Shown here one piece after another: positions 30,241 through 33,240 of a DNA stretch of 64,000 bases. The notes beneath the pieces were generated by a model, which saw only the letters and a list, made by a program, of their open reading frames with translations, was not told the DNA's origin and searched no databases. The DNA is from Escherichia coli (GTDB lineage: Bacteria; Pseudomonadota; Gammaproteobacteria; Enterobacterales; Enterobacteriaceae): NCBI RefSeq assembly GCF_003334385.1, contig NZ_QOWN01000003.1; one strand, given 5' to 3'. The position numbers were made by a program, and so were the translations under genes. Each line of letters opens with the position of its first letter. Within the stretch, counting starts at the first letter, position 1.

Positions 30241-31506
30241 ATGAGAAAAATAGTGGCCATGGCCGTTATTTGCCTGACGGCTGCCTCTGGCCTTACCTCT
30301 GCTTATGCGGCGCAACTGGCTGACGATGAAGCGGGACTACGCATCAGACTGAAAAACGAATTGCGCAGGGCGGATAAGCCCAGTGCTGGCGCGGGAAGAG
30401 ATATTTACGCATGGGTACAGGGAGGATTGCTCGATTTCAATAGTGGTTATTATTCCAATATTATTGGCGTTGAAGGCGGGGCGTATTATGTTTATAAATT
30501 AGGTGCTCGTGCTGATATGAGTACCCGGTGGTATCTTGATGGTGATAAAAGTTTTGGCTTTGCCCTGGGGGCAGTAAAAATAAAACCCAGTGAAAATAGC
30601 CTGCTTAAATTAGGTCGCTTCGGGACGGATTATAGTTATGGTAGCTTACCTTATCGTATTCCGTTAATGGCTGGCAGTTCGCAACGTACATTACCGACAG
30701 TTTCTGAAGGAGCATTAGGTTATTGGGCTTTAACACCAAATATTGATCTGTGGGGAATGTGGCGTTCACGAGTATTTTTATGGACTGATTCAACAACCGG
30801 TATTCGTGATGAAGGGGTGTATAACAGCCAGACGGGAAAATACGATAAACATCGCGCACGTTCTTTTTTAGCCGCCAGTTGGCATGATGATACCAGTCGC
30901 TATTCTCTGGGGGCATCGGTACAGAAAGATGTTTCCAATCAGATACAAAGTATTCTCGAGAAAAGCATACCGCTCGACCCGAATTATACGTTGAAAGGGG
31001 AGTTGCTCGGCTTTTACGCGCAGCTCGAAGGTTTAAGTCGTAATACCAGCCAGCCCAATGAAACGGCGTTGGTTAGTGGACAATTGACCTGGAATGCGCC
31101 GTGGGGAAGTGTATTTGGCAGTGGTGGTTATTTGCGCCATGCAATGAATGGTGCCGTGGTGGATACCGACATTGGCTATCCCTTTTCATTAAGTCTTGAT
31201 CGTAACCGTGAAGGAATGCAGTCCTGGCAATTGGGCGTCAACTATCGTTTAACGCCGCAATTTACGCTGACATTTGCACCGATTGTGACTCGCGGCTATG
31301 AATCCAGTAAACGAGATGTGCGGATTGAAGGCACGGGTATCTTAGGTGGTATGAACTATCGGGTCAGCGAAGGGCCGTTACAAGGGATGAATTTCTTTCT
31401 TGCTGCCGATAAAGGGCGGGAAAAGCGCGATGGCAGTACGCTGGGCGATCGCCTGAATTACTGGGATGTGAAAATGAGTATTCAGTATGACTTTATGCTG
31501 AAGTAA
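30241..31506 (+). CDS. uidC: Outer-membrane glucuronide porin UidC
   Basis: 421 aa with signal peptide MRKIVAMAVICLTAASGLTSAYAAQ; C-terminal ...YDFMLK. Confidence 0.88.
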   Translation: MRKIVAMAVICLTAASGLTSAYAAQLADDEAGLRIRLKNELRRADKPSAGAGRDIYAWVQGGLLDFNSGYYSNIIGVEGGAYYVYKLGARADMSTRWYLDGDKSFGFALGAVKIKPSENSLLKLGRFGTDYSYGSLPYRIPLMAGSSQRTLPTVSEGALGYWALTPNIDLWGMWRSRVFLWTDSTTGIRDEGVYNSQTGKYDKHRARSFLAASWHDDTSRYSLGASVQKDVSNQIQSILEKSIPLDPNYTLKGELLGFYAQLEGLSRNTSQPNETALVSGQLTWNAPWGSVFGSGGYLRHAMNGAVVDTDIGYPFSLSLDRNREGMQSWQLGVNYRLTPQFTLTFAPIVTRGYESSKRDVRIEGTGILGGMNYRVSEGPLQGMNFFLAADKGREKRDGSTLGDRLNYWDVKMSIQYDFMLK

Positions 31507-31513
31507 AAAATAA

Positions 31514-31540
31514 CGCCGGAGAGAAAAATCTCCGGCGTTT
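31514..31540 (+). terminator. Hairpin after uidC (CGCCGGAGA-gaaaaa-TCTCCGGCG then TTT)
   Basis: Read directly; short U tract. Confidence 0.5.
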
Positions 31541-31570
31541 CAGATTGTTGACAAAGTGCGCGTTTTTTAT

Positions 31571-31604
31571 GCCGGATGCGGCGTAAACGCCTTATCCAGC
31601 CTAC
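31571..31604. repeat. REP (repetitive extragenic palindromic) element
   Basis: GCCGGATGCGGCGTAAACGCCTTATCCAGCCTAC matches the E. coli REP/PU consensus. Confidence 0.8.
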
Positions 31605-31637
31605 AAAAACTCATAAATTCAAAGTGTTGCAGGAAAA

Positions 31638-31668
31638 GGTAGGCCTGATAAGCGTAGCGCATCAGGCA
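31638..31668. repeat. REP element in opposite orientation (forms a BIME with 31571..31604)
   Basis: GGTAGGCCTGATAAGCGTAGCGCATCAGGCA, REP-like. Confidence 0.75.
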
Positions 31669-31694
31669 ATCTCTGGTTTGTTTTCAGATGAAAA

Positions 31695-31724
31695 CGCCGG
31701 AGTGAAAATTCTCCGGCGTTTTGG
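31695..31724 (-). terminator. Bidirectional hairpin terminator after ydgA
   Basis: CGCCGGAG-tgaaaatt-CTCCGGCG flanked by AAAA and TTTT. Confidence 0.65.
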
Positions 31725-31731
31725 CCGTGAA

Positions 31732-33240
31732 TTACTGCTGCGGAATTGCCGGTACAGCCGGAACGTTAAGAGCTGGCATCGCAAACATGCCAACAAAATC
31801 TTCTAACGACATTTTCTGCCCATTTAACGTTATCTGACCGTTAGCATATTGCAGGCTGGTGGTGATGGTATTGTCCTGCAAGGTGGTCAGACGGAACATC
31901 TGCCCCATTGCTGATGCACCTTCAACTTGCTGTTTCGCCAGTTTTTTCGCTTGATCTTCCTGATAACCTTCCAGCTTCGCTACCTGAGTCATAAACTCAG
32001 TTGCCATATCCACCGGAATGGTCAGTTTCGCATCCAGAGATTTAACCGAACGATCTACTTCCTGCGCCAGCGTTTGCGGCGCTTCTTTAGTCGTTGCCGG
32101 ATCTTTCAGGAACAGCGACAGATTCAGGGCACTTTCACCCTGACTGTTTTTCCAGCTTAGCGGCGCGATAGTAATCACCGGATCGCCTTTCAGCATCAGC
32201 GGCAGGGCGCTAAAGAAGGCTTCCGTCACTTTCTCCTGATAAAGTTCGGGGTTGTTGGCAATTTCTGGCTGTGCCAGCAGCGCCTGAGTTTGCGCGTTAT
32301 ATTGCTGGCTAAACTGATGCCAGGCTTCACCATCAATCTGGCCGACTTTTAAAGTCAGCTTGCCGCTGCCCAGATCCTGATTCTGTACCTTCAGGCTGTT
32401 TAGCGAGTAATCCAGTTGGCTATTGATCGTTTTACCGTCATTGACCAGATCCGATTTACCGCTGATCTCCATGCCTTCCAGCAGTGCCAGTTCTTTGCCT
32501 TCCACTGAAATGGTCATTTTTTCCAGTGACAGTTTTTGATTTCCTACACGCTCACCAAAACTTGCCAGCGTGCTGGAACCGTCGGTTTTCAGATTATTAA
32601 AGGTCAACTGCACTTTCTGGTTGTATTCGTTAACTGCGTCTATCCGACCACTTTGCGCCTCCCCGGAAAGGGAGATGGCTTTGCCGTCTCTGTCAGCATT
32701 TAACTGGAACTCGCCGCCGCTAAAGGCGACTTTTTCATCCTTTTGCTCGTAATTCAGTGGCTTGAGCGAAATATCGGAACTGGAATCACCGCTGTAACCA
32801 ATGCGCGAGTTAATCTCAAAAGGCGTTTCACCTTTTGCCATATCAAACAGTGGTTTGCTTACTTCGTTATTAACCAGCGTGGTTTGAATTGATGCCATCG
32901 ACGGGATCAGGTTCAGTTTTTTAAGCTGGGCAAGCGGGAAGGGACCATGATCAACCGATTCGTTGAAGATGACGCTCTGACCGCTTTTAATCCACGGATT
33001 TTCTTTCCCGGCAATGGGTTTCACCAACAGTTGCAACTGGCTGCTGAATACGCCGCGATGATAGTTTTGATAACTCACTTCCAGGTTGGATTCAGGAGCT
33101 GTCAGTTTGAGTTGCGCGTTCGCCTGCGCGACCATGTCTTCGAGATGGGTTTCAATCTTCTTGCCTGTATACCATGCGCCGCCTGTCCAGACTACGCCTA
33201 GCGCAACAATGACGCCTACCGCTACCAGCGATTTATTCAT
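31732..33240 (-). CDS. ydgA: DUF945 periplasmic protein YdgA
   Basis: 502 aa MNKSLVAVGVIVALGVVWTGGAWYTGKKIETHLEDMVAQ...; matches YdgA. Confidence 0.88.
   Translation of the reverse strand: MNKSLVAVGVIVALGVVWTGGAWYTGKKIETHLEDMVAQANAQLKLTAPESNLEVSYQNYHRGVFSSQLQLLVKPIAGKENPWIKSGQSVIFNESVDHGPFPLAQLKKLNLIPSMASIQTTLVNNEVSKPLFDMAKGETPFEINSRIGYSGDSSSDISLKPLNYEQKDEKVAFSGGEFQLNADRDGKAISLSGEAQSGRIDAVNEYNQKVQLTFNNLKTDGSSTLASFGERVGNQKLSLEKMTISVEGKELALLEGMEISGKSDLVNDGKTINSQLDYSLNSLKVQNQDLGSGKLTLKVGQIDGEAWHQFSQQYNAQTQALLAQPEIANNPELYQEKVTEAFFSALPLMLKGDPVITIAPLSWKNSQGESALNLSLFLKDPATTKEAPQTLAQEVDRSVKSLDAKLTIPVDMATEFMTQVAKLEGYQEDQAKKLAKQQVEGASAMGQMFRLTTLQDNTITTSLQYANGQITLNGQKMSLEDFVGMFAMPALNVPAVPAIPQQ

Follow-up and report, generated by a model that had tools for sequence, protein, structure and literature searches.

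RIP126, a BIME-1 element of Escherichia coli, and its probable insertion into the terminator hairpin between uidC and ydgA

A palindromic repeat separates the convergent genes uidC and ydgA of Escherichia coli, and the locus raises the question of what this repeat is and how it came to lie there. The window, that is the whole stretch of DNA that was analysed, comprises 64,000 nucleotides. In it uidC, encoding a glucuronide uptake porin, occupies 30241–31506 on the + strand (stop codon 31504–31506) and ydgA, encoding a DUF945 protein, 31732–33240 on the − strand (stop codon 31732–31734), according to the list of open reading frames and the RefSeq annotation of 100%-identical genomes, which include K-12, BW25113 and BL21. 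A 76-aa open reading frame across the repeat (31576–31806, + strand) was treated as spurious. An earlier note on this DNA had described a pair of REP units (BIME) between the two genes and had proposed alignment to the REP consensus as a check. Both units were found where they had been placed: the Y consensus, which we take to be GCCGGATGCGGCGTGAACGCCTTATCCGGCCTAC from the BIME literature, matched 31571–31604 on the + strand with 2 mismatches in 34, and the Z1 consensus GCCTGATGCGCTACGCTTATCAGGCCTAC matched 31639–31667 on the − strand with 0 mismatches in 29. Each pattern had one match in the 64-kb window at up to 3 mismatches, against a chance expectation of 0.00 from 100 dinucleotide-preserving shuffles, and relative to the empirical consensus of the 31 listed family copies the Y REP had 1 mismatch and the Z1 REP none. 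The units are indeed inverted. Their CTAC (31601–31604) and GTAG (31639–31642) ends, the conserved REP tetranucleotide at the feet of the palindromes, face each other over a 34-nt spacer, and GTAG (CTAC on the other strand) is a feature of REPs as defined in PMC3333891. No further canonical REP tails were found in the intergenic DNA of the 64-kb window.

A single unit of Y, L linker and Z1 is a BIME-1 (PMC3333891, PMC1187871), and this one is already known: in Tran et al. (2009) it appears downstream of ydgA under its name in Rudd's catalogue, RIP126, where RIP means repetitive IHF-binding palindrome (PMC2773258). The description as a typical E. coli extragenic repeat was thus borne out, the element being a complete BIME-1 catalogued in K-12; the RefSeq feature table of MG1655 has no repeat feature entered at the uidC–ydgA site. 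Members of the class are extragenic, lie at 3' ends of transcription units, measure about 140–150 bp and vary among strains (PMC1187871); RIP126 lies between convergent stop codons, measures 152 nt and is present in 1751 of 5426 genomes. Its architecture is that of the BIME-1, RIP and RIB elements described by Gilson, Bachellier and Hofnung, by Oppenheim, by Boccard and Prentki and in Rudd's RIP catalogue. Nothing essential sets it apart from them, although it is more diverged than most and its linker core reads AGTG instead of the TATA of the family. The Rfam family naRNA4 (RF02564, a REP325-derived RNA) matched the Y REP only, with 37 bits and E = 7e-5 at a gathering threshold of 59.5, and this sub-threshold match mirrors common REP sequence, not family membership.

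The earlier note had given the extent of the repeat as 31571–31668, which places the REP units correctly but falls short of the repeated unit, in fact the 152 nt of 31541–31692 (+ strand). This begins with a left arm at 31541–31569 (CAGATTGTTGACAAAGTGCGCGTTTTTTA), defined by the family alignment and in the consensus a partial inverted repeat of the right arm, followed by the Y-type REP at 31570–31604 (TGCCGGATGCGGCGTAAACGCCTTATCCAGCCTAC, with its CTAC end), which was assigned by its consensus match. The 34-nt L linker (31605–31638) has an IHF-like core, ATTCAAAGTGTTG, at 31617–31629. The Z1-type REP, an exact consensus match, occupies 31639–31668 on the − strand and reads GTAGGCCTGATAAGCGTAGCGCATCAGGCA on the + strand, and the right arm at 31669–31692, ATCTCTGGTTTGTTTTCAGATGAA, is diverged from the family consensus ATTTTGCGTTTGTCATCAGTCTCA in the alignment.

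We searched the 152-nt stretch against 5426 complete E. coli genomes, and in those without the element at uidC–ydgA positions 1–147 matched elsewhere at about 84%, for example at fepA–entD and satP–mog. Alignment with 31 non-redundant copies gave the anatomy of the family: a left arm starting CAGATTGnTGACAAAGTGCGC, Y, a linker with a conserved AAATTCAATATATTGCAG core, Z1, and a right arm ending in GCGTTTGTCATCAGTCTC. The RIP126 copy is 82% identical to the consensus of these 31 copies, where the median of the family is 90%; both REPs are near perfect, and its right arm and the edges of its linker have diverged. Because of this low identity and the diverged right arm the copy is to be regarded as old, and it holds little information on the original junctions. 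Between the arms, 15 of 25 positions can pair in the consensus and 10 of 25 in RIP126; such complementarity is unspecific in an element that is quasi-palindromic throughout. Two bases of the family consensus, the T of 'TCAGATTG' and the A of 'CTCA', probably belong to the target, which would make the element proper about 152 nt, the exact length at uidC–ydgA. A copy of the 8-mer TTTCAGAT lies just within each end of RIP126, at 31538–31545 and 31683–31690 of the window, and the right arm ends in ...TTTTCAGATGAA where the family has ...CATCAGTCTCA; either the right terminus was remodelled or the 8-mer is there by chance.

The terminators that had been claimed for both sides of the REP pair proved to be two copies of one hairpin. 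Searches for direct and inverted repeats located a left copy, nearest uidC, at 31512–31540 (AACGCCGGAGAGAAAAATCTCCGGCGTTT) and a right copy, nearest ydgA, at 31693–31721 (AACGCCGGAGTGAAAATTCTCCGGCGTTT). The hairpin, AACGCCGGAG-loop-CTCCGGCGTTT, was returned by the repeat finder as a direct repeat with starts 181 nt apart. The copies are identical at 27 of 29 positions, both differences being in the loop, and the repeat score of 24 exceeded those of all 3906 permuted flank pairs (maximum 17). Comparison across strains, which had been suggested, was the informative test. The full-length region was found in 1751 of the 5426 complete E. coli genomes, and 3675 lacked the element and one hairpin copy as a block, so that the flanks span 370 instead of 551 bases, exactly 181 fewer. 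Four empty-site genomes, one of them O157:H7, were aligned, and each had a single hairpin that was identical to the left copy or differed from it by 1 loop base, with TTTTGGC and the end of ydgA coming immediately after it. The hairpin of the empty site is a single bidirectional intrinsic terminator common to uidC and ydgA. The occupied allele is accordingly the empty allele plus a 152-nt element and a second 29-nt copy of the hairpin.

From these alleles we consider it likely that RIP126, otherwise an ordinary element, was inserted into the uidC–ydgA terminator and that the hairpin was duplicated in the process. The direction of the change is probable and not proven, because recombination between the hairpin copies would restore the empty allele exactly, without a scar. 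Two other accounts of the flanking hairpins were rejected. Two independent terminators alike by chance are ruled out by the empty alleles, which have one hairpin and are 181 bp shorter, and by the permutation score. A paralogous source of BIME and hairpin together found no support at the closest paralogues, fepA–entD and satP–mog, which have the 147-nt element only and other flanks. The element is dispensable, as the roughly two thirds of E. coli without it keep both genes.

The neighbouring end of ydgA bears on the history of the locus. In the comparison with four empty-site alleles, a patch at 31722–31860 (− strand) was diverged and almost purely synonymous: over the last ~110–140 nt of ydgA the occupied type differed from the four empty types by 10–13%, against a background of about 1%, and in the last 50 residues of YdgA a single residue separates it from all four. 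The patch was bimodal across 5424 genomes, with 1743 at ≥99% and 3653 at 80–90% identity, and the number of genomes with the patch matches that of genomes with RIP126. Nearly all occupied alleles match the window at ≥99% identity, and empty alleles occur in diverse lineages. A divergence this high cannot have arisen within E. coli, and such synonymous divergence suggests that a short tract, received by recombination from a diverged lineage, carried the element in. RIP126 thus probably entered one E. coli clade, K-12 and B strains included, together with the ydgA patch. The loop of the left hairpin copy is the resident one and that of the right copy shows two differences, a pattern that would fit a join inside the hairpin stem. 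No donor of the diverged patch was found among the 129 loci examined.

Occupied and empty alleles could also be compared at other loci. At ymdF–rutG a single hairpin, ACCGCCGGTAACCCCGGCGG, is present in the empty E. coli alleles, with TTTT after it. In the lineage of strain SCPM-O-B-8794 this site has a BIME-1 in the Y-to-Z1 orientation; it is filled in 1734 E. coli genomes, and the one inspected (strain S30) has a BIME-1 in the opposite orientation. The SCPM and S30 copies are at the same hairpin, and both have a copy of it on either side. Similarly, at gudD–barA the SCPM lineage and E. coli have opposite orientations at one hairpin, the second hairpin copy having decayed in E. coli. Copies at the same locus were no more similar to each other than to unrelated ones (rank 10–11 of 31 listed copies), which leaves in-place inversion unsupported and favours independent insertions, in a comparison of limited power. 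Intergenic flanks from SCPM-O-B-8794 (L060–L086) are about 90% identical to most of the 5426 genomes and match 3–7 genomes at ≥99%; the strain seems to represent a separate Escherichia lineage filed as E. coli. Older insertions with one decayed hairpin copy were seen in E. coli at satP–mog (L007:380-560) and gudD–barA (L134:160-385), where the hairpin copy still beside a T-run or A-run is intact, which suggests that selection keeps only the hairpin copy that still works as a terminator.

The same signature was sought in the wider family. A scan for exact Z1 sequences in one genome per species gave at least 120 stretches, and those listed came from E. albertii, Pseudocitrobacter faecalis, several Citrobacter and the genome labelled E. 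coli SCPM-O-B-8794. Among the matches listed, 85 of 133 Z1 sites had a Y tail 31–36 nt upstream, 82 of them with enough flank to use. A flanking repeat was accepted when it scored above the 99th percentile of permuted left and right flanks. By this threshold 17 of the 31 non-redundant listed copies with both arms recognisable had a repeat, as did 22 of 63 in an inclusive set with fixed flank windows (about 0.6 expected), these being the 63 non-redundant BIME-1 copies of Escherichia, Citrobacter and Pseudocitrobacter among the matches listed. In nearly all of the 17 positive listed copies the repeat abuts both ends of the element and is palindromic, with a length of 15–25 nt, and most of them have an A-run before the left hairpin copy, a T-run after the right copy, or both. 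The duplicated segment has no fixed length; its extent tracks the local palindrome within about 1 base and ranges from 15 to 29 nt overall. There was no orientation bias relative to the terminator T-run (5 copies with a T-run only, 4 with an A-run only and 6 with both). About one half to two thirds of the listed family copies have no significant flanking repeat, which could reflect decay or more than one route of insertion. On the whole, BIME-1 seems to behave as a MITE-like insertion, with terminator hairpins as its targets and the entire hairpin being duplicated. The stricter statement, that BIME-1 inserts specifically at intrinsic-terminator hairpins, in either orientation, with duplication of the whole hairpin over a length set by DNA structure, is one that we advance tentatively and would not yet rely on. 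No prior account of hairpin or terminator duplication at BIMEs or REPINs was found in the literature searched, older BIME papers lying outside its scope; these may describe the footprint, and we do not claim priority for it.

In E. albertii NBRC 107761 tandem arrays of 2 or 3 BIME-1 units were observed, with a spacing of about 147–177 nt. One of them (L036:1522-1727) has a copy of the local hairpin between the units, as [hairpin-BIME-1]n, and another (L015:7105-7428) has a repeated non-BIME spacer there. The [hairpin-BIME-1] arrays resemble those of Pseudomonas REPINs, in which flanking sequence is also repeated (PMC3116915), and they may have arisen by unequal exchange between duplicated hairpins.

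A mechanism can be proposed in which the ancestral site had one bidirectional terminator hairpin between uidC and ydgA. As the duplication always equals the target palindrome, BIME-1 would have been joined at the two feet of the hairpin, and the gaps would then have been filled in. The geometry of joining would be like that of a classical target-site duplication, with the stagger set by structure. Bacterial MITEs are a natural comparison (PMC3184786). BIME-1 resembles them in being small and non-coding, with flanking direct repeats of the target and a long stem-loop, and its arms may represent imperfect terminal inverted repeats; target-site duplication is evident from the empty sites at uidC–ydgA and ymdF–rutG. 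MITE duplications, however, are short, and each transposase produces a fixed length, so that the variable length seen here, 15–29 nt following the local palindrome, is unusual. We know of no parent insertion sequence with BIME-1 ends. IS186 generates duplications of GC-rich palindromic sites that vary in length, and Cas1-Cas2, assisted by IHF in E. coli, duplicates the complete CRISPR repeat on spacer integration. In both, a palindromic target is duplicated by joining at its two borders; this is meant as an analogy, with no relationship claimed.

The transposase now proposed for REPs and BIMEs is TnpA_REP (RAYT), of the IS200/IS605 type, a group that makes no target duplications (PMC3333891, PMC2817692). 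RIP126 shares with the REPIN/RAYT system the doublet of inverted REPs, which can form one long hairpin, and it is likewise non-autonomous and intergenic only. It departs from that system in its flanks: Y1 transposases of the IS200/IS605 type leave no target repeats, whereas a 29-nt hairpin is duplicated around RIP126, and at least one third of the listed family copies are bracketed by a duplicated hairpin as well. Given this contrast, the duplication would be due either to a different mode of action of RAYT on BIME-1 or to some other activity.

Insertion would also have altered termination for both genes. The tail of the hairpin nearest uidC changed from TTTTGGCTG in the empty to TTTCAGATTG in the occupied allele and that of the hairpin nearest ydgA from TTATTTTTTAC to TTTTCATCTG; the original tails of both genes now follow the far hairpin copies. 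After insertion each gene would therefore first meet a hairpin with an altered U-tract, the original U-tracts lying behind the far copies. By a simple scan the region has a single canonical terminator, on the − strand at 31539–31512 with the tail ATTTTTT, which is the distal copy for ydgA, and a simple scan of 31300–31950 found no promoter-like (sigma-70-like) site. Both strands fold far better than shuffled sequences (z = −6.6 and −7.3), with two terminator hairpins and REP stem-loops, and in the predicted folds the REPs form stem-loops of their own or, in the DNA centroid, pair partly with each other. This anatomy favours a scheme in which transcripts, above all those from ydgA, would read through the weakened nearest hairpin, cross the element and stop at the far hairpin, and the resulting 3' UTR with two REP stem-loops could slow 3' exonucleases and so protect the end. 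A Northern blot with a RIP126-specific probe detected an RNA of 480 nt, and its authors were undecided between a decay intermediate of ydgA and a new ncRNA (PMC2773258). Stabilisation of mRNA 3' ends, which the earlier note had suggested, is plausible and fits the 480-nt RNA; it is not automatic, because the element sits between two hairpins.

The note had also named gyrase and IHF as possible partners. Linkers of BIME-1 often carry an IHF site (PMC3333891), and IHF is the expected partner of the class (PMC3333891, PMC2817692). The linker core ATTCAAAGTGTTG of RIP126 has 1 mismatch to the IHF consensus WATCAANNNNTTR, a match that is weak by itself, since the window has 0.83 such matches per kb when up to 1 mismatch is allowed. 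The argument for IHF thus rests on family conservation, an IHF-like core being retained in 25 of the 31 listed copies, and from its class membership the linker is predicted to offer an IHF site. Gyrase binding at RIP126 is less likely, given that BIME-2 binds gyrase more strongly than BIME-1 (PMC1475751, PMC2817692).

Other explanations have to be weighed against insertion. Were the occupied allele ancestral, deletion between the hairpin copies, by strand slippage or recombination, would have removed the element from most lineages, and 29-nt direct repeats would permit scarless deletion of exactly 181 bp. The abstract of a 1997 Genetics paper by Bachellier et al. reportedly mentions 'excisions of a whole BIME-1', which counts for such loss. 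Chiapello et al. say of BIME-1 no more than that it is present or absent among isolates (PMC1187871). The distribution of the alleles nevertheless makes an ancestral occupied allele improbable. Empty alleles are found in diverse lineages (O157:H7, O45:H2), with flanks that are 5–6% off the window and differ among themselves, and occupied alleles, with few exceptions, share ≥99% identity. Even on the deletion account the near-identical pair of hairpins still requires an earlier duplication, and the copies in opposite orientation at the one ymdF–rutG hairpin, where most E. coli are empty, argue for gains. The near-invariance of the occupied allele in 1751 genomes could also be read as selection for a host function, with the element kept, for example, because it binds IHF in an architectural or topological role, or because it stabilises the ydgA and uidC mRNAs, and not as a neutral remnant of a mobile element. 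In keeping with this, conservation within the diverged copy is highest in the REP stems and the IHF-like core, and according to a 2026 preprint convergent gene pairs with a REP between them are expressed at higher levels. We consider this unlikely: near-invariance is expected anyway from a single young clade, both arms and parts of the linker have decayed, and 3675 genomes with intact genes do without the element.

The 480-nt RNA allows a further reading, that of an independent sRNA whose transcription begins beyond the ydgA terminator and continues, antisense, into the 3' end of uidC. It was candidate 9 of Tran et al. (2009), who detected the 480-nt species with the RIP126 probe and favoured an ncRNA, having judged the ydgA terminator to be strong (PMC2773258). 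Read-through from ydgA is plausible even so, as the hairpin nearest ydgA is without its original U-rich tail. No sigma-70-like promoter is seen in 31300–31950; the terminator at 31539–31512 on the − strand would stop − strand transcripts before uidC, and the element is missing in about two thirds of strains. An independent sRNA therefore appears very improbable.

Insertion of RIP126 into a terminator hairpin thus remains the preferred reading. The uidC–ydgA locus itself has little weight, being a catalogued, dispensable repeat in the best-studied bacterial genome. About 1% of the E. coli genome consists of REP and BIME elements. What this analysis adds are the counts of presence and absence among strains, the hairpin on both sides and the same signature in the family, and what merits a second look is the recurrent duplicated-terminator footprint and the linkage to the probably imported ydgA patch. 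A 2026 preprint describes REP insertion in vivo as 'not fully established' and as 'semi-random'. The duplicated hairpin, if true and undescribed, would be a concrete footprint of REP/BIME insertion in vivo, and it would be hard to account for if RAYT worked by plain IS200/IS605-style single-strand 'peel and paste'. With a recurrent signature, experiments could be aimed at a known target and at an expected product, namely a hairpin on both sides of an element in either orientation and one hairpin in the empty alleles, and the signature would explain why BIME-1 is located at 3' ends of transcription units. The locus would also exemplify an insertion that leaves a terminator hairpin beside each gene while lying itself inside 3' UTRs.

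Some further observations were made in the course of the comparisons. An array in Pseudocitrobacter faecalis (L057:8870-9122) has 3 exact Z1 units, 112 nt apart, alternating with a shorter Y-like REP (GCCGGATGCGGCTTCGCC...); it is BIME-2-like yet contains Z1, which the E. coli classification makes specific to BIME-1. Exact 29-nt Z1 units of the E. coli type were also present in MAG contigs labelled Oscillospiraceae, Bacteroides and Bacteroidales (L010, L087 and L088), which are probably mis-binned enterobacterial DNA. At the uid locus of E. coli CH10508 (L004:1316-1650) a deletion has directly fused a 5' gene fragment just after uidR with the final 150 nt of uidC; uidA, uidB and uidC are largely gone and the single terminator hairpin is retained. 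In E. coli O157:H7 OK1 (L133:1-4272 and L001) uidA and uidC are annotated as frameshifted pseudogenes, which fits the glucuronidase-negative character of O157:H7.
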